NCBI GenBank assembly: GCA_002392765.1
Contig: DGHT01000045.1
Span: 1,315-65,314, forward strand
DNA from: Verrucomicrobia bacterium UBA3841
GTDB taxonomy: Bacteria > Verrucomicrobiota > Kiritimatiellia > RFP12 > UBA1067
Length of the DNA: 64,000 nt
Direction: 5' to 3'
Below the pieces are notes generated by a model. It did not search any database, was not told where the DNA came from, and saw only the letters and a program-made list of their open reading frames with translations. Position numbers and translations under genes: made by a program. Shown piece after piece: positions 16,449-36,672 of the stretch. Each line of letters opens with the position of its first letter. The stretch's first letter is position 1.

Positions 16449-16753
16449 TCACAACTCCAGCGGCTTGCCGACGTCATAAATCATAGTTGCCGGAAGCGAG
16501 TCTTTCTGCAGGAACATCACCATGTAGATTGGCGCATAGTATACTTTGCCGGCAGATTCCATCGCATCGTCGTCAAACACAATCGCCGACTCAATCCCGT
16601 ACTCATCGCATTCCAGAAGCTTGTCCAGTGCTCTGTGACGCTTGTAGTGCTTACCGCTCTTTACCTCGATCGGGCTCCATCAATGAGTAGTGCCGTTCTG
16701 CCTGCCTCTTGATAGAATCTTTCCAGTCTCTCCATTATTTTGCGATAAATCAT
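16449..16753 (-). pseudogene. internally deleted AAA/DUF4143 ATPase remnant
   Basis: The minus-strand reading starts MIYRKIMERLERFYQEAGRTALLIDGARSR and then hits a stop where the Walker A should follow. After a frame change it continues IEVKSGKHYKRHRALDKLLECDEYGIESAIVFDDD...GKPLEL, which is the family's C-terminal end. Confidence 0.5.
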
Positions 16754-16880
16754 ATACTTTCACCTTTCGCGGCAAATTATAGCATACCTACGTCAAAAAA
16801 TCAACCCGCAAATAAAGATTTTTGACAATTTTTGAACCACAAAAGAGTATCTACTTGACAAAAACTACCCCATCAGAAAT

Positions 16881-16957
16881 GGTAGGGCTGGCGTTCCACC
16901 GCCAGCCGCCCCACCCCCCGCCCCAAGGAGGTGGCGCGTCCCGCCCCACCCGCCACG
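16881..16957 (+). repeat. REP-like modular repeat, diverged copy
   Basis: GGTAGGGCTGGCGTTCCACCGCCAGCCGCCCCACCCCCCGCCCCAAGGAGGTGGCGCGTCCCGCCCC. A partial H2-only copy also lies at about 16345..16386. Confidence 0.75.
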
Positions 16958-17478
16958 CAGGAGATTGGATGCGCCCAACATCCGACAAGTCGCAGCATTT
17001 ATGGCGAGACGGGTTTACAATGGGGTCTGCCCCCCAACTGGGAAAGCACCCCTGCTAGGGCATCGCCAAGGCGACTCGCCTTCGGCTCGGGGGATATGCC
17101 ATCTTGGCGGCTGTATCAAGGAGATGGAGCATCTTGCTCCGTCCTAACTGGGAAAGCCGCCGTCCCGGCGGCTTAGGAATTTCGCAATTGCGGAATCGGT
17201 AGGGCGGCGTGTCCCCACACCGCTGGTAGGGCGCGATCACCGGTATCACCCGAACATAGCGAGCCGCGCAAGCGGTCGCTAGAGGGGTGCGCCCCGCCGT
17301 CGCCGCTGTCAAAAGAACAGAGGAAGGTATGCTCCGAAAAGTATCGTTGCATTCCCGACAATCGCACATTTCAGTCCATATGTCAATGCGACCCGTCGCA
17401 TGGCGCGGTTCAAACCCATCGCTTGGCACAACGGCACTGTGAAATCCACCCAAGCTCAAATCAAGGAAACGAGTGAAA

Positions 17479-17547
17479 CTTGACAAAATGACGGAGTGAA
17501 GCTTGGCAAAATGACGGAGTGGAATCTGGCAAAATGACGGAGTGCTG
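17479..17547 (+). repeat. three tandem 23-24-bp repeats (core GRCAAAATGACGGAGTG)
   Basis: cttgacaaaatgacggagtgaag / cttggcaaaatgacggagtggaat / ctggcaaaatgacggagtgctg, immediately upstream of the truncated ATPase ORF at 17556. Confidence 0.7.
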
Positions 17548-17555
17548 TTGCGTTT

Positions 17556-18167
17556 GTGCTGAAGTCGCTTGCACGCAATGTCTCGTCCATTGCCACCCAG
17601 CAGACAATCATTGACGACATGTGCGCCAACGACTGTACGGCGTCGGACAAAACGGTGGCAGACTACCTAAATGCACTCAGGAAGATATTTGTTGTTGAAG
17701 ACACGCCGGCGTGGACGCCCGCGCTACGGTCGAAGACGGCCATACGATCAGCTGCGAAGCGCCAGTTCTCGGATCCATCAATTCCAGCAGCCGTCCTGGG
17801 GGCGAATCCCGACGGCCTTATGCGAGATATCGTGACACTGGGATTCCTGTTCGAGTCGATGTGTTGCCGTGATCTCCGAGTTTACGCGCAGGCAATGGAC
17901 GGACAGGTTTCGCATTTCCGCGATCGGCATGGACTGGAAATTGACCTCGTGGTGTCATTGCCGGACGGAAGATGGGGCGGCGTGGAGGTGAAGCTCGGCA
18001 GTGGGCGGATAGACGAGGCTGCGCAGAATCTTCTCAAGGTCGCCGGACGAGTGGATGAGATGCGCACGGGCAAGCCTTCGTTTCTGATGGTTCTGACCGG
18101 GGCGAAATTCGCCTTCCGACGCCCTGATGGCGTCATTGTCTGTCCCTTGGGCTGCCTGAAACCTTGA
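17556..18167 (+). pseudogene. N-terminally truncated AAA/DUF4143 ATPase (C-terminal 203 aa only)
   Basis: The ORF lacks any Walker A region. It begins inside the DUF4143-like part and ends in the restriction-endonuclease-like tail (ENLGLEIDLVV..WGGVEVKLGSGRID pattern: GLEIDLVVSLPDGRWGGVEVKLGSGRIDEAA). Confidence 0.55.
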
Positions 18168-18190
18168 CCTTTCGCAGATCGACGGCGTCC

Positions 18191-18402
18191 TTTCGGTCGT
18201 GCAGGTCTGCTACGAGCTGACGGACGACAACAGGGAGAGAGAATTCGACGGGCTTGCCTCCGCGGCAAAAAGGTTTGGCCTCAAATCCGGAATCGTCGTC
18301 ACTTGCAACCAATCCGACGAAGCGATCCACGACGGCTGCGAGAACTCCGTCATCCCAGCCGCCGACTACCTGTCAATGTAATACGCCGCCCCGTGCCGCA
18401 CC
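18191..18402 (+). pseudogene. duplicated 3' end of the 15087..16295 ATPase gene
   Basis: 18191-18402 is near-identical to 16105-16320. It encodes ...VQVCYELTDDNREREFDGLASAAKRFGLKSGIVVTCNQSDEAIHDGCENSVIPAADYLSM together with the same downstream flank. Confidence 0.65.
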
Positions 18403-18481
18403 GGTAGGGCTGGCGTTCCACCGCCAGCCGCCCCACCCGCCGACTCAAGGAGGTGGAGCGTCCCGCCCCACCCGCCGCACC
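18403..18481 (+). repeat. REP-like modular repeat
   Basis: Full H1+H2 unit: GGTAGGGCTGGCGTTCCACCGCCAGCCGCCCCACCCGCCGACTCAAGGAGGTGGAGCGTCCCGCCCCACCCGCCGCACC. Confidence 0.8.
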
Positions 18482-18534
18482 ATGGGGAAAAAGGGATAGA
18501 CGTAGCCATGGCGCCTGCCGTACTCACTGCCGCG

Positions 18535-18654
18535 TCAGAACTCGCGAGTCGACGGGAACATCGCCCCATTTCGTTCTGCCGCAAGATACGGGCAGCCGCC
18601 CATTGGCATGCACAATATCAGGCAGCCAATTATGATCACGATTCTCTTTTTCAC
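18535..18654 (-). pseudogene. truncated paralog of the lipoprotein gene 20425..21090 (signal peptide only)
   Basis: A GTG-start reading gives MKKRIVIIIGCLILCMPMGGCPYLAAERNGAMFPSTREF then a stop. The DNA at 18600-18720 aligns with 21040-21140, including the upstream region. Confidence 0.45.
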
Positions 18655-18818
18655 AGCACAGCCTCCCTATCCAATTCACCAATGGCAAGAACGCGATGCT
18701 CGCGAGGTTTGCCGCTGTGCATAGATTTTCCAACTGCCGGTTATTAGATTAAAGCCAACAGCGGCACCATCAATCCGAACCTATGAAGCGATATCAGATC
18801 TGCCACGATATGTCGCCT

Positions 18819-18906
18819 CTTGCGATTTCCTTCGACGCCTACTTGCGATTTCCTCTGATTCCTACTTGCGATTTCCCCTGATTCCTACTTGCGATTTCCT
18901 CCTATG
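18819..18906 (+). repeat. four tandem 23-bp repeats (CTTGCGATTTCCNCTGATTCCTA)
   Basis: The units start at 18819, 18842, 18865 and 18888. The array ends about 40 nt before the ATPase start codon at 18946. Confidence 0.75.
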
Positions 18907-18945
18907 TTATGCTATAATATTATCAATAAAAATGGAGATAGTACG

Positions 18946-20163
18946 ATGATATCCAGATGGCAAGAAAATAATCTAATACATGGGCTCAAGGTGCGTCGCG
19001 GCATCCATCTTACAGGTGCTAGACAGGTAGGGAAAACCACACTGGCAGAAGCCATAAGCATAGATTCTGTCGTGCATCGCTCTCTGGACAAGTCATCACA
19101 AGTCAGGGCGGCAAAATCCGATCCAGAGCTGTTTGTGCGTAGGAAAGGGGCTGAAACCATTGTTATTGATGAAATACAAAAAGCGCCCGAGTTGCTTGAA
19201 GAGATAAAACTCAAAGTTGACCACGACAATTCGCCTGGCCAATATCTTCTTACCGGCAGCTCAAATCTTCGTTTCCTCAAATCTGTAAAGGATTCGCTTG
19301 CCGGACGGTTTGGCACAATCAGGTTGCGAACGCTAACCCTTGGTGAACTAAACGGCTCTGCTCCCGACTTTCTCGACCAGTTATTCAATGAAGACTTCAG
19401 GAGAGCTTCAAAGGGCTTTGACAAACCATCACTAATCCATGCAGCCTTCATGGGCGGCTATCCGGAGCCGCTTGAGTTTTCGCATAGAGACAAGAAAGAC
19501 TGGGTGAAGAACTACCTCAATGATATTCTGACGAAGGACATAAAGGACATAACGGAGCTTAGGAAGCTGGATTCCTTGAGTGCAGCCGTGCTTTGGCTGA
19601 TGGCCCACACGGCTCAGCTCTTTACAATCGAGGAGTTCGGCGCCAAAGCCGGACTCACGCGAGAAACATCCCAGACATACATAGCCGCGTTGACAGCGCT
19701 TTACCTCTTCGACAAGGTCCCAGCATGGGCGAAAAGCGATTATGACAAAATCGGGAAACGTCCAAAATACATCATCACAGACACCTCGCTCGCCTCAATC
19801 ATGCTGGGCTGGCACGAAGACAATGTGGTTTTCGACGAACACACAAACGGGAAACTTGCGGAGTCCTGGGCCTATCATGAGATAGCCGCCCAGGCTGATA
19901 TCACAGGCGACTACAGCATAACACATTACAGAGACAGTGACAAGCGCGAAATTGATTTTGTCGTTGAGCGCGACGACGGACATTGCGCCGGGATTGAGGT
20001 GAAATGCGGTTCCTCCGTCGGGGATGAAGATTTCAAGCATCTTAAATGGTTTCGTGCAAAGTTCAATATGGACCGATTCACAGGAATTGTCCTTTACACG
20101 GGAAACGACGTGCTGAGTTTCGGCAATCACATGTACGCCGTCCCCTTTGCGAACTTGACCTGA
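18946..20163 (+). CDS. AAA+ ATPase with DUF4143-like C-terminal domain
   Basis: Start taken at MISRWQENNL, preceded by GGAGA. Walker A is GARQVGKTTLAE and Walker B is VIDEIQK. The C-terminus is REIDFVVERDDGHCAGIEVKCGSS. Confidence 0.8.
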   Translation: MISRWQENNLIHGLKVRRGIHLTGARQVGKTTLAEAISIDSVVHRSLDKSSQVRAAKSDPELFVRRKGAETIVIDEIQKAPELLEEIKLKVDHDNSPGQYLLTGSSNLRFLKSVKDSLAGRFGTIRLRTLTLGELNGSAPDFLDQLFNEDFRRASKGFDKPSLIHAAFMGGYPEPLEFSHRDKKDWVKNYLNDILTKDIKDITELRKLDSLSAAVLWLMAHTAQLFTIEEFGAKAGLTRETSQTYIAALTALYLFDKVPAWAKSDYDKIGKRPKYIITDTSLASIMLGWHEDNVVFDEHTNGKLAESWAYHEIAAQADITGDYSITHYRDSDKREIDFVVERDDGHCAGIEVKCGSSVGDEDFKHLKWFRAKFNMDRFTGIVLYTGNDVLSFGNHMYAVPFANLT

Positions 20164-24643: not shown

Positions 24644-24672
24644 TTGACATTTCATATTTAAAATGATACAAT
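24644..24672 (+). promoter_or_regulatory. near-consensus sigma-70 promoter for the RtcR-like gene
   Basis: TTGACA (24644-24649), a 17-nt spacer, then TACAAT (24667-24672). The ATG follows 38 nt downstream. Confidence 0.55.
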
Positions 24673-24709: not shown

Positions 24710-26647
24710 ATGGACAGCAAAGGCAGAAAAGTTGTTGTATTCTCTTTTTTCGACGAAACAGAGGACTATCGCGGCATAATCAATGCCGCACTTAGAAAAG
24801 ATTGGGAGAATGAGGTTGACAAGTGGGCAGAGAATAGCTATTCAGGAGAAAGACCCTCAAGAAATAAATATAAGAAAAACAGCACCAAAAAGTTTTCCGA
24901 AACACATAATCCAGAAGAAATTGACAAAACGTACTGGCGGCCATCCACCGCCTTGGCACTCTCATTACGGGAAAGACAAAAAATTACCATAGACGAGTAT
25001 CACCTATTCTATCAACCGAAATTAAAAGATCACGAAAGCGAGCAACTCAATGGTACACACTATATTAAGGATGCAATTGAACGTTTAGTGCCAGGCATTA
25101 AAGTTAATCTTGAGAAAATTGACATAGGCAACGGTCACAATCTCAAGATCGTGTACGAAAACCTCTTTACATACTTTCTGAATTACTTTAATCCATCACA
25201 AGCAGACGCTAACACCACGAACATTCGATATCTAGTCCACGTCACATCTGGTTCACAGGCCGTCCGCATGTGCCTCTTTCTTCTCGCCCAGAACAGATGG
25301 ATACCAGCTGAATGCATTCAACTCTGGACAACAAAAAAGAACGATCCAGTCGGGGAATGCTCAATAACAGCGCTTGGGGCTTCGACCAAAGGGGAAACCA
25401 AGCTCTTGCAGAACGACCCCGAATCCCTTGGCGAAATTATCGAAACAAGAGATAAAGACTACAGCAACACACTTGCATATATTAAGCGGATTGCAGACAA
25501 AACTAATGAACCAATCTTGCTATTGGGCGACACTGGAGTCGGAAAATCCCAAATTGCGAAGTTAATATTCGACCATCGTAAAAAATCCCTTGCAAGCAAA
25601 GATGACTATATATCAAACAAAAACAATGAATGGATTACAAAGGATGGAGCCTTTAAATGGGTTAACTGTAGCGGCCTCGACGACGCTCTTGTAAATGACA
25701 CTCTGTTTGGGCATGTGAAGGGTGGGTACACAGGCGCGACAGAGGACAAAGCTGGGCTAGTAGAACTGGCCTGTGGAGGTGTGTTGTTTCTGGATGAAAT
25801 AGGCAATCTCCCTATCGAAACACAAGGGAAATTGCTTACTCTCATTGACGAGCATAAATTCAACCCCATTGGTGATCGCGGAGCGCCAAAAGAATCTAAA
25901 TTCCTCCTCATCTGCGCTACCAATGAATGGATACCAGATCTAATTGAGAAAGGTAAGTTTCGCCGTGATCTTTTTGAACGTATTCGTACTTGGACATTCC
26001 GCATTCCAAATCTTAAAGAGCGCCCGGACGACATTGACCTTAACATTGACAACCTGTTAAAGATCTTCAGCAGAGACAATGGCACCAATATTCAGTTCAG
26101 CAACGAACTGTCACGCCAAAATTTCCTATCCGCCATAAAAGGCATGACGTTCAATGGTAATTTCAGAGAACTAAGACGGATCATATGGCGTATGGCAACC
26201 ATTGCCACACTTGAAAAACACGTCATTGACGACAGCATAATTCAAGACGAAATCGAAAGACTCAAAAGCGAGCAGGAATGGAATAACAAGTCCTCGTCCA
26301 AGCAAGTGCAGTCACCACCCAAGATAGCATCTATCAACGAAACCTTTGCCGACAAAGTCTTGAATGCCATCCACCAAAAATATGACATCAAATCTAATAT
26401 CAACAACATTGAACTTCATCAACTGCGGCACGTTATTGAGGTTTGTTTACGAAGCAAGACAGGTGCGGCCGCTGCGAGAGAACTGTTTAATGTAAGTTTA
26501 AAAGATAAAGGCAATGGTTTAGGCGCTAAAAGCAATGCCTCCGATTATATGAGCCGTTATTTTAGGCGAAAAGCCATTAGCCAGCTAGGCATCGACTTTG
26601 ACACGATTAAGTCTATCGCAAGGGAGCTCCGCCAAAAAACTACTTGA
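24710..26647 (+). CDS. RtcR-like regulator: CARF-like N-terminal domain, sigma-54-interaction AAA+ domain and C-terminal HTH
   Basis: 645 aa that is collinear with my recollection of E. coli RtcR. The matching blocks are YLVHVTSGSQAVRMCLFLLAQNRWIPAECIQLW, Walker A GDTGVGKS, LFGHVKGGYTGA (a GAFTGA-loop variant, 25721-25738), GGVLFLDEIG, GKFRRDLFERIRTWTFRIPNLKERPDDI and NGNFRELRRIIWRMA. Confidence 0.85.
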   Translation: MDSKGRKVVVFSFFDETEDYRGIINAALRKDWENEVDKWAENSYSGERPSRNKYKKNSTKKFSETHNPEEIDKTYWRPSTALALSLRERQKITIDEYHLFYQPKLKDHESEQLNGTHYIKDAIERLVPGIKVNLEKIDIGNGHNLKIVYENLFTYFLNYFNPSQADANTTNIRYLVHVTSGSQAVRMCLFLLAQNRWIPAECIQLWTTKKNDPVGECSITALGASTKGETKLLQNDPESLGEIIETRDKDYSNTLAYIKRIADKTNEPILLLGDTGVGKSQIAKLIFDHRKKSLASKDDYISNKNNEWITKDGAFKWVNCSGLDDALVNDTLFGHVKGGYTGATEDKAGLVELACGGVLFLDEIGNLPIETQGKLLTLIDEHKFNPIGDRGAPKESKFLLICATNEWIPDLIEKGKFRRDLFERIRTWTFRIPNLKERPDDIDLNIDNLLKIFSRDNGTNIQFSNELSRQNFLSAIKGMTFNGNFRELRRIIWRMATIATLEKHVIDDSIIQDEIERLKSEQEWNNKSSSKQVQSPPKIASINETFADKVLNAIHQKYDIKSNINNIELHQLRHVIEVCLRSKTGAAAARELFNVSLKDKGNGLGAKSNASDYMSRYFRRKAISQLGIDFDTIKSIARELRQKTT

Positions 26648-27311
26648 AGAGTCGCCGCAAAGGAATGCTTCCATTACTCCAAGCAAGACGGGCTGCACCC
26701 AAGTACTTCGAAAATGACGGCAATAGAATTTTCTGATCTTTTTTCGCATTAAGAACCTCTAGAAACTCCGTCTGCGTAATCGGCTTATGCTTTGAAAGAA
26801 ACTCGACCGGGGAGGCTAACTGCTTCATAGCACCAGGCTCCATAAGCCATTCAGCAGTTGCACAATAGGCTTCACGGCGCTGAACAAGCTTCAGTAAAGT
26901 GTTTCTGCCAAGTACACTACGTCCAACATATGTCTCTCCCCCCATCTCTGGCACGTCTATTTCAATCCTACCATCTTCATTTCGAAATACGCGAAGCACA
27001 TATGCGGCATCCGTCAAAAAAGGCCCCGTCTCGAAAACCTCGGACAAAACCGCATCACTTTCGACCGTTAATGCATCTTCATCCGAGAAATCCCACTCCG
27101 CGTCAAACACTTCCTCGGCAAGCTCATCGTCTATTGCCAAATCTTCATATCCAACGGAAATATCCTGGACTATGTGCCCTCGCTGCTCCAGTTCCTGTAA
27201 GTTGCGCTGCACTTCCAGAGGCCCCCCAGAACAAACTATATCGGCCAGAACGTGTAATGCCTGAGTTTGCTTCGTCTGCTGTTCCTGCCCAATACCAAAT
27301 CCGAGGCCCAT
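26640..27311 (-). CDS. truncated sigma-54 (RpoN)-like factor, about 223 aa
   Basis: It has a Gln/Leu-rich Region-I-like N-terminus (GIGQEQQTKQTQALHVLADI...LEVQRNLQELEQ) and an acidic Region-II-like stretch. This is followed by AYVLRVFRNEDGRIEIDV, RNTLLKLVQRREAYCATAEWLMEPGAMK and KPITQTEFLEVLN...LPSFSKYLGAARLAWSNGSIPLRRLF, which resemble the sigma-54 DNA-binding region up to the HTH (..STISRVT..KY..TPRGIFELKYFF). No RpoN box is present. The start at 27311 has an AAGGAGG 9 nt upstream, inside the RNAP gene's end. Confidence 0.6.
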   Translation of the reverse strand: MGLGFGIGQEQQTKQTQALHVLADIVCSGGPLEVQRNLQELEQRGHIVQDISVGYEDLAIDDELAEEVFDAEWDFSDEDALTVESDAVLSEVFETGPFLTDAAYVLRVFRNEDGRIEIDVPEMGGETYVGRSVLGRNTLLKLVQRREAYCATAEWLMEPGAMKQLASPVEFLSKHKPITQTEFLEVLNAKKDQKILLPSFSKYLGAARLAWSNGSIPLRRLFK

Positions 27312-27312
27312 C

Positions 27313-30300
27313 TTAAGCATCCTCCTTTCCGCAAGTCTTTTCGCGATGCCCCCAGCGATTGAACATCACCTTGGCAAATGGTGAATCAAATGACAACACA
27401 CCGTCGCTTATCGCAAGTTCAAATATCTGCCGTTTCTGCCTCTGAAAAAGAATATCCGTAAACGTTTTGTCCGCCGATTTATCAGCTGCCGCACTATTTT
27501 TCGTTGCCTCTCGTTTCTTCTTCAGTGCCTCCCAGAGGATTTCCAGATACTTATCGTCAATTTCCGCATATTCGGTCTCTTCATTATCCCCATTTTTTCT
27601 AATTGCATTTATAAAACCGACCTTATCGTCATCCCTAACATAATCTCTATGTTCAGGACTCCCCTTCTCCCCAACTTCCCCGGTTAAGAACAACGCACGG
27701 GATCGCGCGATGTCGATTCCCTTCCCACCTGTATGGAACCCCTGCATCGCGACCTGAAGTCCCCTTTCGCCTATTGCCTGCGCCGCGATAAGACCTTCTT
27801 GCCCTTTCGGCCAGAGCATAAACACAAGGCGACGCGTAAGATCGCCGGCCTTACCTGCACCAAGCTTCTTATTGCACATAGTGGTGCGAGCATTTAACGA
27901 CGACCAGAACATTTCGTCCCACGACATCCCATGCACGAGCGAACAATCGAACTTCTTGGCCTTATCCGGGATTAGGTCTTTTGAGTACCCCAAATGATCC
28001 ATGTCCACATGCAACTCGCCTCGCGAACCTATTAATTGGCGTATTTGGCTTTGACCGTTTGCACCCGACCTGACCATGTCCAAAACTGACTTCTCTCCGG
28101 CAGACAGATCGGACGCTCCACGCACTTTGTCGAGAATGCCTTGCTCCTCCATCTTCCCAACTCGCGAACTAAGGTCTAATAAATCATAGAACCCAAAGGA
28201 CACGCCTTGGCGTGTACATGCATGATAAGCAAGACGGGCGAGAGCAGCAATCGCCTTTGCCGACTTCTCACCATTCTCCTCGGACAACTCATCAATAAGT
28301 TTCTTGCCGAACTCGCCAGGCTTATCAAACTTCTCCTCAAATAGCTTGCGAATCCCGTCATCCAGATTAATCTCGTCAATCTCTTTCTTATACTTCACCT
28401 GGTTCTCATAGACAATCTGCAGCCCAGTCACAAAATCGCGGTCATACTGCGCCGAAGCTTTTCCCGTACCTATCATACGAAGATTATTGCGCGGTAGCAT
28501 TACAACAGCCTCTTTCTGGGCCTCGTCAGATACAGGATAGTGTCCAACCATCTCGTCACCATCGAAGTCGGCGGCAAAACCCTTGCAGCAGAGCGGCGAT
28601 ATCTGCAGCACTTCGCCGTCTTCGGGCTTCAATGGCTCAGGGTAAAACGCCTGAAAGCCATGACGATGAAGTGTTGGCTGACGATTGAGCAAAATCAACT
28701 GCGGATGTTCATTCAAATAGTCGCGAAGCAACTTATACTTCTCGTCATCTGTAAGCGAAGAAGCGGCCTTATTCCACCACCATCCAACGCGCAGTACAAT
28801 TTCGGAGTCATTCGATCCAGACACTACCGTTTCTGAGTCTGCAGGATTGCTTGTTTCAGCCCCCATAAACGAAGCTAATACTCTGTCTCCCATCAATTCC
28901 CACAGGACATCTGTCGGTACGCGGACCTTATCCCATTCCAATTCGGGATTTGGCGTAATGACCAATCGGAATGAACGATCAACGCGACGCCCCAGTCCTT
29001 CGCGACGCAACAATCCATCCTTTTTGTCAAGACGATTAGCGATTTCCACGAACAGCTCTTTGACCGCTGTCTTAACACCGGCCAAGCACTTCTCTTTATC
29101 TTTAACTCCACATGCCCTAACAAGTTTGCGGTAGAGGTTATTAATCTCGGCGCAGCTTGCCGCATTGTCGGATATTTCCGGGATCGGCCGTCGATAGCGA
29201 ATCGGGAGAACTGGTATAATTGTTAGTTTGGGCAGTTCCTGTCCCAACGACCTCAAATCTTTTGCAGATATGCCAAAAGCATCGTATGGATAATCAACTG
29301 GCTCTGGAAGTTTAACATATCCCCACTTATCATCGCAAAGTTCCGGCTTTCTCCAATCACCAAATATCACTTCGTCAAATATACTGCCCGGATTGGCTTT
29401 ATAATAACACCCGTATGGAGGCGTCGCTTTCAGAGAGATTGTCGCGTGGTGAGGACATGTGACAGAGAAGTCTCCCAGCGCCGGACCCTCTTTCTCTCCA
29501 CATAACGAACTAAGAAGATCTTTAGCGGATCTGTTAAGCGGTTTGCCAGCCACCTTCCCCTTGCTAAACCTCCCGTAACAGGTCATCGTTTCCATACCAA
29601 CCGGCCATTTAGGAGGTTGCATTCCAGGCTTAGGAACAATCTCAGCCTTTATCCAGTCTTTCTGCGGGTCATAGTCTTTTAGCGTCACAACAAGAGTACA
29701 TTTGGGAGCGCCCTCAACCGGAGTTAAATCCCACTCAAAGACCGCAGGTCCCATGCCTTGACCTGGCATCGGATGAATAGGCTTTGTGCAATCATACCCC
29801 CAGCTGCGCAAAACACTCTTAACTCTGAGCGCATTGGTGTTTTTGTTGTCACCACTACCTTTTGGCAGCTTCTCATTGCCAAACGGCATCCCACATCCTT
29901 TGGGACAGACAAACGAAGCTGTTGGCTCCTTTGAAACACCACCGGCAGACAACACACGCTGCGCACCATTGTCTTCAATCCATTCCCTGATCGTCTCTTC
30001 TGACATTAACGAGAATCGAACCTTGTCTGCCCCTGCCTGCTCCATATCAATCCCAAGCGCCCAAAGCCAATCTCGCGCAACTCGCGGGAATCCAGAAAAC
30101 AGCTCCTTTACAGGCGGGGCTCCTTCAGCTTTCCATTCGCTCGCCCATTCAACGTCGGACTTCGCGCCCAGCATCTCTTCAAGAATATGCGGCACGCCGT
30201 ATGCAGCAAGCGCCCACACCTCCATCTCCCCCAGTCTCTGCCCGCCGCCAATTCGACGTCCATGCGCAGCCTGCCGAGTGGTAGACGAATATTTTGCATC

Positions 30301-32460
30301 CGAACCACCACATCGTGCCTGCGCTTTAAACTCTGGCACATGATGAAGCCGGACAAAGTACTCAAACCCAACGAGTACAGGGCTCTCCGTCTTCGACCCA
30401 TCTGGCAACACCAATTGGATGCATCCCTTCCGGTCTAGCCCACTTGCCTCAAGGGCGTGGCGAATTGCATCATGGTCAAGATTCGCGTTGTCGAAGCAAC
30501 CAAGTTCAGGCGACACTCCGCCACTTTTCAAGAAGTTAGCCCCATTCCACCCCGCATGAAGCAGCCAACCAAGATGCGTTTCCAGAAGCTGGCCAGGGTT
30601 CATCCTAGATAGCACACCATGTGGGTTAAGCAGAACATCTATGGCTTTGCCACGCAGATTCGCTGGCAACCGAGGATCATCGGGGAGGTGCGGCATTTCT
30701 TCTTCATCAAGAACCCTCGCGACCACCCCCTTGTTACCATGCCGCCCCATCAACTTGTCACCGAGACCAAGCGGCACCTCTTTCTCTAGTTCAAATGACA
30801 AACGCTGAGACAACTCTTGCAATGCTTCAGAATCTTCACACCCTTCATTAGGCGGAAAGAATGGTCCTTTGGAAATCCGGGCAGGATTCGGGTCCTCATA
30901 TCGCAAGACAAGCTTTTTCTTGTCACCATTGGCAAAAGATATGACAACATCTCCTTGCTTTAGAGGTGTGCAATTGTCAATCCTTTTCCAGAACGGGACC
31001 CATTCCGGGCTAATTTCGTGCGAAAACCACTTGCGCTCCGCAATCGCCATTTTTTCTGCGACTTTCCGACTGACAACAATCGCATCATCCACATTCCATC
31101 CATTCCACGACATATAGGCCACAAGAAGATCGCACCCGAGCGCAAGATCACCCTTCTCATCGATGGTGTTTGGACAGATGCCTATGTCTGTAAGCCGACA
31201 CATCTTTTCGACAAGTTCGCGCTCCGCGCCAGTCTTTACAAGCGGTGCGCAGCGTCCTGAGACGAGTGTTGCCTGCCGAAGGTTCTTTGCACCCAGCATA
31301 TTCCTGGCGTCGTCATTATGTTGCGCAAAGGGAATCATAGAAACTCCCCAGCCCACGCTCCCCATAGCTCCACCATGCTGCTCCATTGCCCCCTCAGCCA
31401 TGACAATCTCGCCATTTGCAGTGACACGAGCATGCCGAGCCAGTTGCAATGAGATGCCAATCATTTCGGATTCAGGTGTCTCAATCGGACAAATCCGGCC
31501 ACGGAACGACGGATGATTCTGCCGAAAATCCAATGGGAAACAAAGCACATTGGTTCGCTTGACATGGTAGCGCTTTATACCGGTGATGCTTGCCATCAGC
31601 TCCAGTGCGTTGTTCGGTTGGACAGGGGTGACAAAACCACCTCGCTTCAGCCCATTCAACGGCACCAAGCAATCGGGAACATATTTGGCCACTTCTTCTG
31701 AAAAGAAATCATCCCCATCCTTGTGTTTCGCGAACAATTTACAAAGTCGAAAAGCAAGCCAGCGCGGGAATGAAACAACAACACGATGCGCAAGATCATC
31801 CTGATCAACAGGCTGCATCAATTCACCTGCATGTTCGCGCACAGCATCAATCACATCCTTTGCCTTGCCGTTCAAAGCCTCCTTTAACCATTCGGGGATG
31901 AGCTCTTTGCTATCCTGTGCCCCACCCCACAATGGACCGAACGGCATGTCATCCATCAACTTCTGCAGACGCTTACAAACGTTATCTGACGGTTCATCCC
32001 ACAGCAAAGACCCTTTTGGTCCGTCCGGAAGTTTCACACTAAACTGCACACACGAAGCATCTGGGAATCCTATTCTCAATTCAACCTCTTTTTCAACCTC
32101 TCGCCTCGTTTTTCCGGCAGGATACACGAACCTAATGCCGGGCTTTTCGGCAAGCCATGAATTCCATACAAGTGACTGCGCATGTTTATCAGAAGCGCCT
32201 ATAAAGACTCCGTCTATGGGAAAAGGTAGCTTCTCAATTCTAAGTACATTTTTGGGATTGCAATTCGACCTGATCTCGATTTCACCGCACAACGTTCGGT
32301 TGTTGTTCCAACACTTCTCTGCCAGCCTTTCAGAAGGAAGTCGCAAACAGGCAGAGACATCCTGCCTCAATATCCGAGAAAGAACCTCCGAAACAGCATC
32401 GTTCCATTCTTTCGCGGTTTCAGGATCAAACATTAGCCAATTAGTTTTTCTGTCTTCCAT
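27313..32460 (-). CDS. single-polypeptide fusion of multisubunit RNA polymerase beta-like and beta'-like moieties (minimal, 1715 aa)
   Basis: Beta motifs are FRGRICPIETPESEMIG (aa 319-335), IPFAQHNDDARNMLGAKNLRQA, VAYMSWNGWNVDDAIVVS, GDKLMGRHGNKGVV (GRHGNKG at 30727-30747), IDVLLNPHGVLSRMNPGQLLETHLG and QRLGEMEVWALAAYG. Beta' motifs are GRRVDRSFRLVITPNP, LLNRQPTLHRHGFQAF, PLCCKGFAADFDGDEM (AADFDGD at 28555-28575), SQIRQLIGSRG, the bridge-helix-like GDLTRRLV and AAQAIGERGLQVAMQGFHTGG. Confidence 0.9.
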   Translation of the reverse strand: MEDRKTNWLMFDPETAKEWNDAVSEVLSRILRQDVSACLRLPSERLAEKCWNNNRTLCGEIEIRSNCNPKNVLRIEKLPFPIDGVFIGASDKHAQSLVWNSWLAEKPGIRFVYPAGKTRREVEKEVELRIGFPDASCVQFSVKLPDGPKGSLLWDEPSDNVCKRLQKLMDDMPFGPLWGGAQDSKELIPEWLKEALNGKAKDVIDAVREHAGELMQPVDQDDLAHRVVVSFPRWLAFRLCKLFAKHKDGDDFFSEEVAKYVPDCLVPLNGLKRGGFVTPVQPNNALELMASITGIKRYHVKRTNVLCFPLDFRQNHPSFRGRICPIETPESEMIGISLQLARHARVTANGEIVMAEGAMEQHGGAMGSVGWGVSMIPFAQHNDDARNMLGAKNLRQATLVSGRCAPLVKTGAERELVEKMCRLTDIGICPNTIDEKGDLALGCDLLVAYMSWNGWNVDDAIVVSRKVAEKMAIAERKWFSHEISPEWVPFWKRIDNCTPLKQGDVVISFANGDKKKLVLRYEDPNPARISKGPFFPPNEGCEDSEALQELSQRLSFELEKEVPLGLGDKLMGRHGNKGVVARVLDEEEMPHLPDDPRLPANLRGKAIDVLLNPHGVLSRMNPGQLLETHLGWLLHAGWNGANFLKSGGVSPELGCFDNANLDHDAIRHALEASGLDRKGCIQLVLPDGSKTESPVLVGFEYFVRLHHVPEFKAQARCGGSDAKYSSTTRQAAHGRRIGGGQRLGEMEVWALAAYGVPHILEEMLGAKSDVEWASEWKAEGAPPVKELFSGFPRVARDWLWALGIDMEQAGADKVRFSLMSEETIREWIEDNGAQRVLSAGGVSKEPTASFVCPKGCGMPFGNEKLPKGSGDNKNTNALRVKSVLRSWGYDCTKPIHPMPGQGMGPAVFEWDLTPVEGAPKCTLVVTLKDYDPQKDWIKAEIVPKPGMQPPKWPVGMETMTCYGRFSKGKVAGKPLNRSAKDLLSSLCGEKEGPALGDFSVTCPHHATISLKATPPYGCYYKANPGSIFDEVIFGDWRKPELCDDKWGYVKLPEPVDYPYDAFGISAKDLRSLGQELPKLTIIPVLPIRYRRPIPEISDNAASCAEINNLYRKLVRACGVKDKEKCLAGVKTAVKELFVEIANRLDKKDGLLRREGLGRRVDRSFRLVITPNPELEWDKVRVPTDVLWELMGDRVLASFMGAETSNPADSETVVSGSNDSEIVLRVGWWWNKAASSLTDDEKYKLLRDYLNEHPQLILLNRQPTLHRHGFQAFYPEPLKPEDGEVLQISPLCCKGFAADFDGDEMVGHYPVSDEAQKEAVVMLPRNNLRMIGTGKASAQYDRDFVTGLQIVYENQVKYKKEIDEINLDDGIRKLFEEKFDKPGEFGKKLIDELSEENGEKSAKAIAALARLAYHACTRQGVSFGFYDLLDLSSRVGKMEEQGILDKVRGASDLSAGEKSVLDMVRSGANGQSQIRQLIGSRGELHVDMDHLGYSKDLIPDKAKKFDCSLVHGMSWDEMFWSSLNARTTMCNKKLGAGKAGDLTRRLVFMLWPKGQEGLIAAQAIGERGLQVAMQGFHTGGKGIDIARSRALFLTGEVGEKGSPEHRDYVRDDDKVGFINAIRKNGDNEETEYAEIDDKYLEILWEALKKKREATKNSAAADKSADKTFTDILFQRQKRQIFELAISDGVLSFDSPFAKVMFNRWGHREKTCGKEDA

Positions 32461-32473
32461 AACACATCAAACT

Positions 32474-34468
32474 TCATTCAAGACTCAACATCTTCTTAGC
32501 AATTTCTATCTGCCCTTCTGCAAATACAGAAAACACATCATACGTTTGAACGGTATTTACATTTGCACACACATGTCCAACACACTGGGAAGCAACGTCT
32601 TCCCCGCCAAGTAGACCATTTCTCGAGAAAGTCATATGTGCATTTCTCATCAACGGGTTTACTCTTGCTCTTAGAGAATCCGTCCATGGTGGACCATTCT
32701 GTTCCACTTCATCAGGATTAAATTCTATCGCCGCAGCCCCATCCTTTGGGCCAGAATAAATCAGCCAACTCTGATTCGGTAGTTTATCATTAAACCACAC
32801 GCCATCACGATATTTATCTCGCTTCTCTACGTCATTTGTGTCAAGATACGGGCAAGATTTTGCATCCAAAACAATCCAATACTGACTTTCTGGAGAATTA
32901 TCACTATAAAACACAATTGCATAATCAGGAGTCAACAGATAGCGAGACGTAAAACCTCTTATGTTAGAATTCTGGTCTTGATATGCTCTAATGCCGCCGT
33001 ATAATTCCACCCTCAATGGACAATCTCTCTGTTTTAGTTTTGCACAGATTGGGCCATTGAATGTTGGTCCAAGATGAATATTCTTGATGCATTGCACGAC
33101 TTGCCTTGCATAGTTAGTCCCAAGATCTTCAAGTCCCTCATTCATAAATGCTTGGACAAGACGCTTAAACACCCATGCCTCATATATAAACGAGTAGTTC
33201 TTTTGCCAAGTTGAACATTCGCCATCATCCAAATCGCGCACATGCTTGGGTAAACGAAAACAACCATTCAAACGGCCCTTAAAGTCTCGCAATTTCAAGA
33301 AGTCCATCATTAATTTATGTGTACGGTTATATGCTTCAGTATTAGGAATGTCAACAGTTGCGAGGTAATCAATGGAACCGGAAACAACGCCTATGCACTG
33401 CATCCATGGACATCCTTCCGTGAAGAAAGGTTGACACTGCCCAACAATCTCCCTCACTTTATCAATCAAAGACCGTTTGAATTCAATTTCTTTCTTTATA
33501 TCCTTAAGAAGGAATTTATCGATATCCGGAACCTTGCTCAACCAATCTTCATCTGCCGATATACTATCTTTTATTTTGTGTATCAAATCAACCACGCAGT
33601 TCTTAAAATACAACAGGAATCCTTTTATTGCCCTATGTATCGGCACATCGTATGACATTGACAACACTGGAGCATAAACCTTTCCATGAGATATTCCCAA
33701 CGACAATCTGCGATTCATATCACGTCTTGTCTTCGATGATATCTTACGTAGTTTCTCCTGGGGAGTCCTCTGATAAGATCTCACAACACCCCCCGCACAT
33801 CTACTTGCAATGTCTAAAAGATATGGCTTCAATGAACTTATCAAACCTTTAAACTCGAGAATTTGCCTCTCTACATCCCTAAGAATGCTCGCCGTCTCGG
33901 AAGAAAAACATTCCTCTTTTATGTTTGTCCTTGAAAGCCCCTCAAATGTAGAAAGAACCGCAGAAGGATTCACACCAATCATCTCATCAACCATACGATC
34001 CAACAACTGCTTCTTGTCAGGATTCGGCTCTACCTTAATGTCAAACTCTGCAATAGTAACCCATTCAAAGTTTTCTGTCATGTTAGCGCGACGACGTAGC
34101 CGCAGCATTGACGGCCCAGAAGCACCACGCAACATCTGCATTCTAAAAACATGAACTTTGTTACCTTTATTATCCTTTCCCCATGTAAAGAACCGCCCTC
34201 CCGAGTCTGTCTGTGGTTCATAATCTGGTCGATACGCAAGTTGTAATTGATATAAAGAATCCAAGTCTTCATTGGGGGCAATCTTTTCAAGTCTCGCCTC
34301 CAAAAACAGAAGGTCACTAACAGCACCTTTGACGCCCCACGCACCTTCGCTAAAGTGAATAAGATTTCGAATGCTGCCCACCACCCCATCGCCAAGAGGA
34401 AGCGATGGTGTTTCAACGAAAGACTCCTTGGAATCTTTATCCTTATAAAAGAAAATCTTAAGATCCAT
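32474..34468 (-). CDS. McrC/DUF2357-like protein with C-terminal PD-(D/E)xK nuclease motif
   Basis: 664 aa. FIYEAWVFKRLVQ is followed by LLTPDYAIVF ... WIVLDAKS (D515, D535-x-K537; 32858-32929). It is immediately downstream (7 nt) of the McrB-like gene. Confidence 0.65.
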   Translation of the reverse strand: MDLKIFFYKDKDSKESFVETPSLPLGDGVVGSIRNLIHFSEGAWGVKGAVSDLLFLEARLEKIAPNEDLDSLYQLQLAYRPDYEPQTDSGGRFFTWGKDNKGNKVHVFRMQMLRGASGPSMLRLRRRANMTENFEWVTIAEFDIKVEPNPDKKQLLDRMVDEMIGVNPSAVLSTFEGLSRTNIKEECFSSETASILRDVERQILEFKGLISSLKPYLLDIASRCAGGVVRSYQRTPQEKLRKISSKTRRDMNRRLSLGISHGKVYAPVLSMSYDVPIHRAIKGFLLYFKNCVVDLIHKIKDSISADEDWLSKVPDIDKFLLKDIKKEIEFKRSLIDKVREIVGQCQPFFTEGCPWMQCIGVVSGSIDYLATVDIPNTEAYNRTHKLMMDFLKLRDFKGRLNGCFRLPKHVRDLDDGECSTWQKNYSFIYEAWVFKRLVQAFMNEGLEDLGTNYARQVVQCIKNIHLGPTFNGPICAKLKQRDCPLRVELYGGIRAYQDQNSNIRGFTSRYLLTPDYAIVFYSDNSPESQYWIVLDAKSCPYLDTNDVEKRDKYRDGVWFNDKLPNQSWLIYSGPKDGAAAIEFNPDEVEQNGPPWTDSLRARVNPLMRNAHMTFSRNGLLGGEDVASQCVGHVCANVNTVQTYDVFSVFAEGQIEIAKKMLSLE

Positions 34469-34475
34469 ACGCTAA

Positions 34476-36479
34476 TTATACTTGCATGATTCTTTTAGTG
34501 TAGTCATCTATTCGCCTTTTCAAGAGCTCCGCAGAAAGTGGTAACTTGAGAACATCCGAGTTTACATTCTGATCGCCCTTGCCACTCACCTCAATTTCAA
34601 ATCCTTTGTTAACGTTATCGTAAAGTGTATTAATAGCAGTTATCGTCCCTGGTGTGGGTCTGCATGCAAAAAACACCCTTTGCGCGAGAAATTCATCCAG
34701 CGCGACTTTCTGTCGCTCGGCTTCAGTAAGGAATGAATTATTTCCTTCATATGGAGGCCTGTTCCGAATATATGTAAACATATCTGAGACAATACGCCCG
34801 CTCATATCGAACCCTGCGTCTGACATAATGCTTTCATTCCCATCCTTAGGTCCTAGAAGAGACAAAATGGCGTTAACAATTATATTGTCAATGTCGCGAG
34901 ACGACTCACACCAACGCTTAAAGGTCCCATATGTGATTGGTTCTCGGCCGACGAAAGGCTTTATTTCAGGGGCATTTCCATCTGCAAGATCCGTCACAAG
35001 CTTCTTCGTAGTTTCAAAAGAACTTGCTAGTTCAATGGTGTTGCAGCGACTTAAAAAACGCGGACTCAATGGGCGTGTTGTTTCGTCCGAATTACATGTA
35101 CCGATCACGCGGAAGTTTTGCTCCACAAACAAGTCCATGCCATTATCCTTACACCCAGGAATCACCCCCATTCCTCGACTCATGATTTGGATAAAATCAG
35201 AGAAGTAATGCTCAACACATGCAAGATTCATTTCTTCAAAACAGACAATGCCCATCGGCAAGTTCTCACCTTCAGATATATTCCTTATGAATTCTGCCAA
35301 GTGACTCGGCGCATGCCGAAAACCACCGTCTGTCTCATAGCCAAGTAGATCCGCAGGTTCCATCCATGCCGGGTTAACAAAAATCTGCCGCCACGACCGC
35401 TCGGCCGGCGGCCGCTCGGCGTCATTCTTTGCGGGCGAACCAGCAACAGCCCTCATATACAATTCTGCCAATGAAGATTTACCTGTGCCGGGGTTACCCG
35501 CTAACAGCGTACACATCGAACACTTGACGCTTGTGTGTAGTCTTACTAGATCGGCCGTGCTATACTTGAAGCCGCACCTTTTGACATATTGCTCAAAACT
35601 TTTCAAAAAAGATATCTCTGTCTCATCCCATTTATCGTCATCCTTGTTGCCTGCACTTTCATGTGACGAATTCTTTCCTGTCAAGCCAGCCGTATCAGAA
35701 GTGGCATCACCAGTCGCTTGTGGCCGGCCAGATATTGCTCTTTCTACGCTATCGCCAACATTGGCACCTATCATGCCGCCTCCACTCAACGGCTCGTCAT
35801 CTTCTGCCTCTGCCCCACGTTCACAACCATCATCGACGGGCAACTTTCGCCAAATGTTTTCATCCGCAAGAAGATCGTCGGTAGTCACATTTTTGAACGG
35901 ATTCACTAACACAAATTGGTCACCATTAAACTTGATCTCCTTACGACGATCGTCATTGCTGAAGAAATAAAACGTCTGCTTCAGGGTCTTCTCCTCATGA
36001 TCCGGCAACCGATCTTCACGAACACCTTCTCCAACTTGAACACGGCCCGTCTCACGATCATAAGTAAATCCTGAATAAAACTTGTTTTCATCTGAAATGA
36101 TAACGTCTCGCGTCCATATTTTATACTTTGGACATAGCCCTTTTGCTGAATTATTTCGGATGAAATCATCCAACGAGGTAGTCTTTGACTCCTCAAATTC
36201 TTCCCATTTCCTCATCTGCACAGGGCGTTTTGCGTTTGCAAATAGGAGTGTCTTTCCATTTTTTACTGTGCACACCGCAAACTCATCACAGACGCAATAT
36301 GGCTTTTCCCCTGAATCAACATGTATTTCACGATCGCCAAGAGGATTGCCAGCTGCATCTACTGCGCTTTTCAATATATGCTTTCGAACTGCGCCTGTCG
36401 CATCACGATCGCGATCATCGTATATCCCATAAATAAAGTCGTCCTTCTTGACATTCCTATTGTAGTGTTTTGGTGCCAT
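34476..36479 (-). CDS. McrB-like AAA+ (AAA_5) NTPase with large unknown N-terminal domain
   Basis: Start taken at MAPKHYNRNV, preceded by AAGGAGAG. Walker A is LLAGNPGTGKS (35475-35498). Walker B plus the McrB-type segment is IVCFEEMNLACVEHYFSDFIQIM, followed by VIGTCNSDETTRPLSPRFLSRCNTIEL. Confidence 0.75.
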   Translation of the reverse strand: MAPKHYNRNVKKDDFIYGIYDDRDRDATGAVRKHILKSAVDAAGNPLGDREIHVDSGEKPYCVCDEFAVCTVKNGKTLLFANAKRPVQMRKWEEFEESKTTSLDDFIRNNSAKGLCPKYKIWTRDVIISDENKFYSGFTYDRETGRVQVGEGVREDRLPDHEEKTLKQTFYFFSNDDRRKEIKFNGDQFVLVNPFKNVTTDDLLADENIWRKLPVDDGCERGAEAEDDEPLSGGGMIGANVGDSVERAISGRPQATGDATSDTAGLTGKNSSHESAGNKDDDKWDETEISFLKSFEQYVKRCGFKYSTADLVRLHTSVKCSMCTLLAGNPGTGKSSLAELYMRAVAGSPAKNDAERPPAERSWRQIFVNPAWMEPADLLGYETDGGFRHAPSHLAEFIRNISEGENLPMGIVCFEEMNLACVEHYFSDFIQIMSRGMGVIPGCKDNGMDLFVEQNFRVIGTCNSDETTRPLSPRFLSRCNTIELASSFETTKKLVTDLADGNAPEIKPFVGREPITYGTFKRWCESSRDIDNIIVNAILSLLGPKDGNESIMSDAGFDMSGRIVSDMFTYIRNRPPYEGNNSFLTEAERQKVALDEFLAQRVFFACRPTPGTITAINTLYDNVNKGFEIEVSGKGDQNVNSDVLKLPLSAELLKRRIDDYTKRIMQV

Positions 36480-36495
36480 CGTACTCTCCTTATTT

Positions 36496-36672
36496 TTAAA
36501 TTCCAACCTCTTGCTGAGCTTGCAGTCTCCGATCCAAGTCCAATTGCATATAATCCACCGCTACAGAACGAAGCCCCATAAAATCATATCCAAGATCATC
36601 AAGAAACATTTTCGCTACAAAATAATTGGCATCAACTAATGCGTTGAAATACCTGTACTTATTCTCTTCCAT
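36496..36672 (-). CDS. 58-aa acidic helical protein, first gene of the island operon (not in ORF track)
   Basis: My own translation is MEENKYRYFNALVDANYFVAKMFLDDLGYDFMGLRSVAVDYMQLDLDRRLQAQQEVGI. A strong SD (GAGGAGGAGGCTCTACAATG) precedes it. Its composition is AT-rich like the island. Confidence 0.4.
   Translation of the reverse strand: MEENKYRYFNALVDANYFVAKMFLDDLGYDFMGLRSVAVDYMQLDLDRRLQAQQEVGI

Follow-up and report, generated by a model that had tools for sequence, protein, structure and literature searches.

A half-size, distant relative of sigma-54 encoded with a fused RNA polymerase and an enhancer-binding-type ATPase in a Verrucomicrobia genome

A protein of 223 amino acids encoded in the genome of Verrucomicrobia bacterium UBA3841 is, judging from profile alignments and a predicted structure, a genuine, though very remote, relative of sigma-54 (RpoN/sigmaN), and it is probably the dedicated, activator-gated initiation factor of the compact fused RNA polymerase whose gene adjoins its own. 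The gene lies at 26640..27311 on the reverse strand (stop codon 26640-26642 included) of the window, by which we mean the whole 64,000-nucleotide stretch of DNA that was analysed. Together, the sigma-like protein, the polymerase and an RtcR-like ATPase encoded convergently point to a hitherto undescribed transcription system that is self-contained and gated by a signal. To our knowledge, sigma-54 has been viewed as one family of uniform architecture, tied to the core polymerase of the cell and without known divergent paralogues. A full-text literature search found no description of the protein, the polymerase family or the trio, and paywalled work may hold one.

Read from the first ATG, the open reading frame spans 26640..27320 on the reverse strand (226 aa). 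The ATG at 27311, which the initial annotation had taken as the start, is a credible start of the 223-aa protein, and we prefer it on the basis of three observations: a Shine-Dalgarno sequence, AAGGAGG (27321..27327, reverse strand, read from the sequence), is spaced 9 nt from this ATG vs. 0 nt from that at 27320; a database gene call (P0001) is 223 aa long and 100% identical to the window protein; and M-G/S-L-G-F is the N-terminus common to all close homologues. The AAGGAGG does lie within the final codons of the gene for the polymerase, as first reported. The polymerase stop codon TAA is at 27315-27313, leaving 1 nt before the ATG, so the tight junction described earlier stands with a spacing of 1 nt, the 2 nt originally given being the position offset. 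The junction is similarly tight in every homologous locus, the two genes overlapping by 4 nt at one extreme and lying 30 nt apart at the other.

All sequence features quoted in the initial annotation were found in the translation: the block in the beta-sheet region (AYVLRVFRNEDGRIEIDV), GRNTLLKLV, and the C-terminal block LPSFSKYLGAARLAWSNGSIPLRRLFK, directly after which comes the stop. The protein thus terminates ...PLRRLFK, right behind the hairpin of the helix-turn-helix (HTH). Its layout on the reverse strand comprises a Gln/Leu-rich N-terminal two-helix segment (aa 7-43, 27183..27293; AF2 helices 7-28 and 31-43), an acidic segment (aa 50-95, 27027..27164; charge count and family alignments), a small beta-sheet (aa 104-130, 26922..27002; AF2 strands 104-110, 116-119 and 128-130) and a region of long helix, HTH and terminal beta-hairpin (aa 133-223, 26643..26915; hhalign, Foldseek and PDB profile match). 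As predicted by this structure, the protein retains a helical N-terminal tail, a strongly acidic linker, a small beta-sheet, a shortened extra-long helix and an HTH.

That this is a half-size sigma-54 relative whose C-terminal half tracks the sigma-54 DNA-binding region, as had been proposed, was borne out by profile comparison. We found 78 representative relatives of the protein, and a family profile of 74 relatives aligned with a profile of 10 sigma-54 sequences at 90.7% probability (hhalign, P 1.3e-6), matching residues 135-223 to residues 326-406 of E. coli sigma-54, a stretch that takes in the last part of the extra-long helix, the HTH and the hairpin with PRGIFELKYFF. Sigma-54 uses this module to recognise the -12 element of the promoter and to keep the complex in its closed, non-melting state. 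The alignment score of 54.9 stands ~17 SD above that of 100 column-shuffled profiles (13.8±2.3, maximum 23.8), and the match persists in separate comparisons of the short-only (87.8%, P 3.3e-6) and long-only (71.5%, P 3.6e-5) subfamilies, demonstrating a C-terminal likeness well beyond chance. The two families are homologous and collinear from the end of the long helix through the three-helix HTH to the G-x-x-x-L-x-x-[FL]-F hairpin, in which G214/L218/F222 align with G395/L399/F403 of the sigma-54 G..F.L..FF motif; R145, present in 82% of the family, aligns with R336 and S201-K202 ([R/K]202 in the family) with S382-R383, so that the equivalents of these sigma-54 residues are kept in the small protein. 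The AF2 model (pLDDT 85.1) gives a similar picture, as the best 12 PDB matches in Foldseek are all sigma-54/sigmaN chains, with the lowest E-value for 8f1j_M (0.011) and the highest probability for 9msh_M (0.99, rmsd 4.4 Å over 125 columns); the figures themselves are modest, with E-values of 0.011 and above and TM-scores of 0.35 or less. An earlier AF2 model built from 10 close homologues reached a pLDDT of 57 and fold E-values ≥0.2 and was not relied on.

It is very improbable that the likeness reflects composition, or that a generic helix-turn-helix has converged on it by chance. Such an origin would fit the single-sequence searches, which returned no match in Pfam, NCBIfam, PADLOC or the PDB (phmmer), and a similarity to Region I that stays at chance level; against it stand the distance of the profile-profile score from its shuffles, the identity of the top PDB profile match (Aquifex sigmaN, 5ui5, E 0.094, at the HTH) and of the 12 best folds, sigma-54 being outranked there by no other HTH family, and an independent genomic linkage to sigma-54-type activators (see below). 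A profile of 10 close homologues gave no sigma-54 match in the PDB, Pfam Sigma54_DBD was weakly touched by 2 of the 74 relatives (best E 0.0027, below the gathering score), and the curated sigma-54 models (Pfam at gathering scores, NCBIfam) assigned the window protein to 0 families.

The other parts of the protein differ in how far they follow sigma-54. The small beta-sheet corresponds to the 'PDVxVxxxxGxWxVxLN' block, which sigma-54 carries ahead of its extra-long helix, and the likeness noted there initially is marginally beyond chance, its hhalign score of 12.7 lying just above the maximum of 12.0 from 100 shuffles (P 0.011). The proposed likeness of the N-terminus to Region I is not supported as homology: the N-terminal segments align with P 0.18 and a score of 9.1 vs. 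a null of 6.9±1.4. Although weak, this alignment is collinear, and the two-helix segment sits where sigma-54 has Region I, a correspondence that falls short of showing homology, and we read the resemblance as a probable analogy of position, helicity and composition. Profile checks on the sigma-54 domains were significant for the extra-long helix and HTH and not significant for Region I. The acidic stretch reported earlier is present, with a net charge of -18 (family mean -18.6, 74 members), and within it lies D70-x-E72-W-D74-F-x-D77-E78-D79, the best conserved motif of the family, in which D77 occurs in 100% and D79 in 98% of the 74 members. We know of no sigma-54 counterpart of this acidic DxEWDFxDED motif. 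In overall order the small protein resembles sigma-54, in that both begin with a helical tail and continue into an acidic linker, and a switch from positive to negative charge has been described for Region I and II of sigmaN (PMC12322047). The family mirrors this switch, with a basic N-terminus (mean charge +2.7 over the first 30 aa) ahead of the acidic block; the corresponding charge in the window protein is -1.

Two sigma-54 domains are absent, as the initial annotation had stated and as length and alignments confirm. No residues of the window protein are left to align with E. coli 407-477, which includes the RpoN box (ARRTVAKYR) that reads the -24 element. The core-binding domain (Sigma54_CBD, approximately residues 110-300 of E. 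coli sigma-54) has no Pfam match and no room in the AF2 layout, where the acidic linker ends at about aa 95 and the beta-sheet starts at aa 104, leaving no space for a helical core-binding domain; of this domain, the beta-hairpin block at the very end (~20 residues) alone has a counterpart in the small protein, and a weak one. Whilst sigma-54 has ~480 aa and a long helix of ~50 residues, the small protein has less than half the length and a helix of ~25. As the anchor of sigma-54 to core RNA polymerase is missing, the anchoring of the small protein would have to differ. Longer relatives of ~310-355 aa (such as P0043, P0064 and P0028) share the same layout up to the terminal LF motif and then carry ~90 extra residues ending '[ML]D[FL]PxFIxxANxxAGTxWxxVxxxYxxRM'. 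The last ~40 residues of this long form weakly resemble the RpoN box region 'LxxLLxxxGIxVARRTVAKYRExL' (P 0.006), and the whole extension aligns with the sigma-54 C-terminus at E 0.17 to 0.038. These relatives also follow a fused polymerase and have a bEBP-type neighbour; in the loci examined, their ATPase partners are co-directional, ~430-450 aa long and have no recognisable CARF domain.

The gene preceding that of the small protein (27313..32460, reverse strand) encodes a fused beta-beta' compact RNA polymerase of 1,715 aa, with Pfam matches to Rpb2_3, Rpb2_6, Rpb2_7, Rpb1_2 and Rpb1_5 and the active-site motif AADFDGD at aa 1296-1302. Its NCBIfam rpoB/rpoC matches are far below the cut-offs and it belongs to a distinct family of ~80 clusters. 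Two further genes lie upstream in the same operon, both on the reverse strand. The nearer (32474..34468) encodes a 664-aa protein, 21% identical to its counterpart in locus L001, which may be McrC-like, a very weak assignment (E 0.23 for Pfam DUF2357). The operon begins with a gene (34476..36506) for a 676-aa AAA_5 (McrB/dynein-type) ATPase (Pfam AAA_5 7.4e-07), which is a PADLOC candidate (PDC-M26A, 1.6e-16) and 34% identical to its L001 counterpart.

The order of polymerase and then small protein is conserved in 10 of 10 distinct loci, with polymerases of 1,600-1,800 aa and identities down to 28%, and this strict adjacency with translational coupling suggests a stoichiometric partner of the polymerase and not a regulator. 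We therefore think it unlikely that the small protein, though derived from sigma-54, acts as a DNA-binding regulator or a decoy, either repressing the module via its HTH or titrating the AAA+ activator by its Region-I-like tail, with the polymerase initiating alone or with another factor. Such a role would agree with the HTH-containing part alone being demonstrably sigma-54-like, with the missing core-binding domain, and with the reported ability of some single-chain relatives of multisubunit RNA polymerases, such as YonO, to work without a sigma factor (PMC5467207). It sits poorly with the constant coupling to the polymerase, and also with the tail, the acidic linker and R145 of the extra-long helix, all pieces of a kind that sigma-54 uses within the holoenzyme.

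The third member of the trio (24710..26647, forward strand) is an RtcR-like CARF-AAA+-HTH ATPase of the enhancer-binding type, whose gene converges on that of the sigma-like protein with an overlap of 8 nt. It matches Pfam Sigma54_activat (3.5e-41) and RtcR (1.2e-16), PADLOC RtcR--CARF_AAA_HTH (2.4e-101) and NCBIfam RtcR (8.6e-103), the last with a score of 345 that is below the cut-off of 650. A sigma-70-type promoter-like site (24644..24672, forward strand; TTGACA-17-TACAAT with an upstream TG, 11 of 12 matches in a consensus scan) lies 38 nt ahead of its start codon, a pattern match only. The sensor domain of the ATPase is of the CARF/RtcR type in the window and of other kinds at other loci.

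In 9 of the 10 loci the genes for the polymerase and the small protein have a bEBP-type Sigma54_activat AAA+ gene with a GAFTGA-like loop as a neighbour; in the tenth (L021) there is no bEBP within 8 kb. This linkage of the small protein's gene to AAA+ ATPases with a GAFTGA-type loop insertion is a further point of likeness to sigma-54. The ATPases differ widely in their N-terminal domains and some loci are without McrB-like genes; as the ATPases vary and the McrB-like cargo is not constant, the constant partner of the ATPase is the polymerase/small-protein pair. This bears on another explanation, which we regard as improbable, in which the RtcR-like ATPase is an ordinary activator that turns on host E-sigma54 at a promoter within this island, in the way that RtcR acts on rtcBA, and the small protein a structural or assembly subunit of the polymerase that acts independently of any activator. 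The ATPase does match the RtcR model along almost all of its sequence, C-terminal HTH included, there is an AAA_5/McrB-like gene at the head of the operon, and RtcR-like CARF-AAA+ proteins beside restriction-type genes have been predicted to act via sigma-54 (PMC4012209). However, varied bEBP-type ATPases accompany the pair also at the loci where McrB-like genes are missing, and in the window the convergent arrangement leaves the ATPase gene and the operon no shared divergent promoter region. Upstream of the operon there is no good -24/-12 site, and canonical sigma-54 sites (GG-N10-GC) occur at chance frequency (25 vs. 24 expected). When aligned with loci L001 and L003, the region upstream of the operon displayed no obvious conserved motif. 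The six ATPase loops that were aligned read GGYTGA (L1 loop of the window ATPase, in place of GAFTGA), GAYTGA (two loci), GAYTGG, GAFTDA and GSYSGA, so that tyrosine replaces the loop phenylalanine in 5 of 6, consistent with a non-canonical target.

If the small protein is the dedicated initiation factor that we favour, translational coupling would produce it in step with the polymerase, which it would bind and set on the DNA in a locked state at promoters that it would itself recognise. The bEBP-type ATPase would then grip the N-terminal tail by its GAFTGA-like (GGYTGA) pore loops and ATP hydrolysis would lift the block, by analogy with the limited unfolding of Region I in canonical sigma-54. 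The CARF-type domain would tie transcription by this private polymerase to a nucleotide or RNA-end signal. More tentatively, the trio may be an orthogonal signal-gated system of variable or defence islands, in which sensing of infection-related nucleotides or damaged RNA would switch on a polymerase that serves immunity independently of host RNA polymerase, for instance through expression of the linked McrB-like genes, transcription of the invader's DNA or a supply of transcripts to RT-Cas1 type III CRISPR modules, which two of the loci adjoin.

The arrangement has partial parallels in known systems. The RtcR-sigma54 system of rtcBA also has a fusion of CARF-type sensor, AAA+ domain and HTH encoded beside its putative targets, as in the window (PMC7790460, PMC9650030); the window differs in having neither rtcA nor rtcB, in its convergent ATPase gene and GGYTGA loop, and in adding a sigma-54-like protein and a polymerase, both private to the system. 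Whilst sigma-54 serves the cellular core enzyme, the small protein presumably serves the non-canonical single-chain polymerase encoded beside it. The RNA polymerases of SPbeta (YonO), crAss-like phages and jumbo phages are likewise compact two-barrel enzymes encoded outside the core transcription genes (PMC5467207, PMC7598289, PMC2919709). In contrast to these phage-borne enzymes, the window family had no tBLASTn match in the phage and plasmid records searched and nothing in a viral structure library, and these collections lend no support to an origin in phages or plasmids; its polymerase also keeps clear bacterial beta and beta' signatures. We know of no use of a sigma-54-like factor or an AAA+ activator by YonO, crAss-like or jumbo-phage polymerases. 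In species-representative genomes no relatives of the small protein were found, either with the family alignment or with P0028 alone.

If these readings are true, a tail, an acidic linker and the extra-long helix with its HTH would suffice for activator-gated initiation, the core-binding domain and RpoN box being dispensable or replaceable. The three genes would form a natural orthogonal transcription system, which would be attractive for synthetic biology and bears on the origin of sigma-54. It would also link AAA+-gated transcription to CARF sensing and type III CRISPR loci, which suggests that the polymerase may act as an effector of immune signalling.

Searched as a single sequence against Pfam, NCBIfam, PADLOC and the PDB, the small protein had no match; only 10 close homologues were present in a 5.8-billion-protein set, and a profile of these did not find sigma-54 in the PDB. 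When 1.84 billion representatives were searched exhaustively by profile, 78 relatives emerged, falling into a short (~215-255 aa) and a long (~310-355 aa) class; 74 of them form the family alignment and profile. Among PDB sequences this profile matched Aquifex sigmaN (5ui5) best, with the match located at the HTH (E 0.094), and against E. coli RpoN alone it reached P 0.003. Profile-profile comparison with a 10-sequence sigma-54 profile, built for this analysis from the rpoN genes of E. coli and of plasmids, gave 90.7% probability (P 1.3e-6): the significant match, negative with the single sequence, appears with the family profile, exactly where the initial annotation had the C-terminal half follow the sigma-54 DNA-binding region. 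Residues 135-223 pair with E. coli sigma-54 326-406, a span that takes in the extra-long helix in its C-terminal part, then the HTH and, after it, the PRGIFELKYFF hairpin. The real score was 54.9, against 13.8±2.3 (maximum 23.8) for 100 column-shuffled sigma-54 profiles, and the short-only and long-only subfamilies each reproduced the match separately; a likeness arisen by chance fits these statistics and the gene trio described below less well, and is very improbable. The AlphaFold model from the 74-sequence alignment was confident (pLDDT 85.1, pTM 0.76), and its 12 best PDB fold matches were all sigma-54/sigmaN chains (best E-value 0.011, 8f1j_M; highest probability 0.99, 9msh_M, rmsd 4.4 Å over 125 columns). 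Conserved family positions fall on sigma-54 residues of known function, R336 and R383 among them: R145 (82% conserved in the family) is equivalent to E. coli R336 and S201-[R/K]202 (S in 79%) to S382-R383, whilst G214, L218 and F222 (the last 100% conserved) are equivalent to G395, L399 and F403.

The open-reading frame was confirmed on the minus strand at 26640-27320, with a Shine-Dalgarno sequence, AAGGAGG (27327-27321, minus strand), 9 nt upstream of the ATG at 27311 and flush against that at 27320. The start at 27311, as originally proposed, is preferred because of this spacing, the 223-aa database gene model (P0001) and the M-G/S-L-G-F start common to all close homologues. The junction with the 1,715-aa polymerase frame is as tight as described, the gap itself being a single base, since the polymerase stop TAA occupies 27315-27313; the 2 nt given originally is the offset in position. 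The gene also overlaps the 3' end of the convergent gene (24710-26647) by 8 nt.

Collinear with the main match, the beta-hairpin block AYVLRVFRNEDGRIEIDV aligned with PDVLVRKHNGHWTVELN at P 0.011, barely over the best of 100 shuffles, and the proposed resemblance of this DV.V block holds only weakly. The N-terminal segment, two predicted helices in the model, had been likened to the activator-interacting Region I; because its alignment with sigma-54 LLQLSxxELxxxLxxELExNPLLE scored at chance level (9.1 vs. 6.9±1.4), that homology is unsupported. The acidic stretch, likened to Region II, is a family constant (mean net charge -18.6 over ~49 residues) and is preceded by a basic N-terminus in 73% of members, an order echoing the positive-to-negative charge switch described for sigmaN Regions I and II (PMC12322047). 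The target is an exception: its acidic stretch is present, and the preceding basic N-terminus is absent (net charge -1 over the first 30 residues). The acidic motif DxEWDFxDED (D-x-E-W-D-F-x-D-E-D; aa 70-79, 27075-27104, minus strand) and the C-terminal F222 hold the only invariant or near-invariant positions of the 74 members, with D77 (100%) and D79 (98%) conserved above any HTH residue; we know of no comparable conservation in canonical Region II. Among the candidate roles, the motif might touch the active-site cleft, mimic DNA or signal the ATPase to stop. Translation, alignments and model all bear out the reported lack of an RpoN box and of a full core-binding domain. Long paralogues have ~90 extra residues, the last 40 of which align weakly (P 0.006, score 14.6 vs. 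a null of 7.25±1.45) with the helix of the RpoN box, so the short form looks, from sequence, like a member without the RpoN-box-like domain. A separate 378-aa “hypothetical protein” on Paracoccus pantotrophus plasmid NZ_CP058691.1 (L013:2812-3948) is a sigma-54 of reduced length and divergent sequence, which shares 25% identity with E. coli RpoN over residues 124-468 and still ends in ARRTVAKYR. It is unrelated to the small-protein family and demonstrates that plasmids or chromids can carry reduced sigma-54 variants.

The fused compact beta-beta' RNA polymerase (27313-32460, minus strand) matches Pfam Rpb2_3, Rpb2_6, Rpb2_7, Rpb1_2 and Rpb1_5, with NCBIfam rpoB and rpoC matches far under cut-offs. 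Its catalytic motif is intact (aa 1296-1302, window 28555-28575), reading AADFDGD instead of the near-universal NADFDGD with all three aspartates retained. The family comprises ~80 clusters of 1,500-1,900 aa, nearly all without a name, and is distinct, with a sharp score drop to canonical beta and beta'. Across 10 distinct loci (the window, L001-L003, the locus of the long-form member P0043, L015, L016, L017, L018, L019/L020, L021/L022 and L023) the small protein is always directly 3' of the polymerase, the two genes overlapping by 4 nt at one extreme and lying 30 nt apart at the other, and HMM searches assign the small frames behind distant polymerases to the family (E 5.6e-64, 1.3e-62 and 5.3e-11). 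Homology of the small protein to sigma-54 and its genomic linkage are demonstrated. A Sigma54_activat AAA+ gene adjoins in nine loci; a sigma-54-derived regulator or decoy would fit this trio and the statistics less well, and is an unlikely reading. The exception, L021, has no bEBP-type ATPase within 8 kb, a DUF2400 gene following the 255-aa member instead; RecC-, RecB- and RecD-like genes precede the polymerase and this member there (L021:1-14400) and in L022. At the most distant locus, L019, a radical-SAM/spore-photoproduct-lyase-like protein (L019:1792-3696) precedes the polymerase, and a 1,208-aa Sigma54_activat protein (L019:9167-12793), with no significant Pfam domain in its ~800-aa N-terminal region, lies 3' of the small protein. 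In L015 and L023, mutually unrelated, the trio stands beside an RT-Cas1/Cas2/Cas6 adaptation module (sites L015:12-424 and L023:7549-7972, with cas genes at L015:494-3792 and L023:1-7119), each with its own, unrelated CRISPR array of different repeats; in L023, 29 nt separate the end of the array from the polymerase start codon, and Cmr/Cas10 type III-B genes are present too.

In the window, the polymerase operon extends upstream to a 664-aa protein, function not assigned, and an AAA_5 (McrB-type) ATPase (32474-36506). Identity to L001 is 85% for the polymerase, 73% for the activator-type ATPase and 66% for the small protein, vs. 34% for the McrB-like and 21% for the 664-aa gene (L001:876-4782), which fits a fast-evolving or swapped specificity/effector pair. 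Around the module lies a variable stretch (~15-42 kb) with three AAA_14/DUF4143 ATPases, a Fic/DOC protein with HTH and another AAA-type ATPase (15087-20163, 37344-38309, 41473-42636); outside it the chromosome is ordinary, bearing genes for glycoside hydrolases and the shikimate pathway. A canonical sigma-54 pattern scan and comparison of the operon upstream region with related loci found no promoter of the system.

The convergent gene (24710-26647, plus strand) encodes an RtcR-like CARF-AAA+-HTH protein (Sigma54_activat 3.5e-41, RtcR 1.2e-16, PADLOC RtcR--CARF_AAA_HTH 2.4e-101), with a sigma-70-type promoter-like site just upstream by pattern match. Its sigma-54-contacting GAFTGA-type loop lies at aa ~331-336 (25700-25720); all six aligned L1 loops (window, L001, L015-L018) are GAFTGA variants, five with Tyr for Phe (GGYTGA, GAYTGA, GAYTGG, GSYSGA), and this Tyr may have co-varied with the small protein's divergent N-terminal tail. 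The ATPase is convergent with an RtcR/CARF-type N-terminal domain in the window, L001, L017 and L018; in the examined long-form loci (L015, L016, L023) it runs co-directionally, is ~440 aa long and has an N-terminal domain that was not recognised. RtcR-like CARF-AAA+ proteins near restriction systems, probably acting via sigma-54 (PMC4012209), are the nearest published account; an ATPase working only through host sigma-54 fits the trio and statistics less well, and we think it improbable.

The small-protein family was absent from the curated models, phage records, plasmid records and species-representative genomes searched, and the full-text literature searched yielded no description of the protein or its system. 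We classify it as a sigma-54-family derivative, new in architecture and partner. It is probably a minimal sigma-54 homologue that is dedicated to the fused polymerase and serves it as an activator-gated initiation factor; we infer that it would bind this polymerase, recognise promoters and depend on ATP, with the CARF-bearing ATPase as a signal-dependent switch. More tentatively, the trio might form an orthogonal transcription system with a role in defence.
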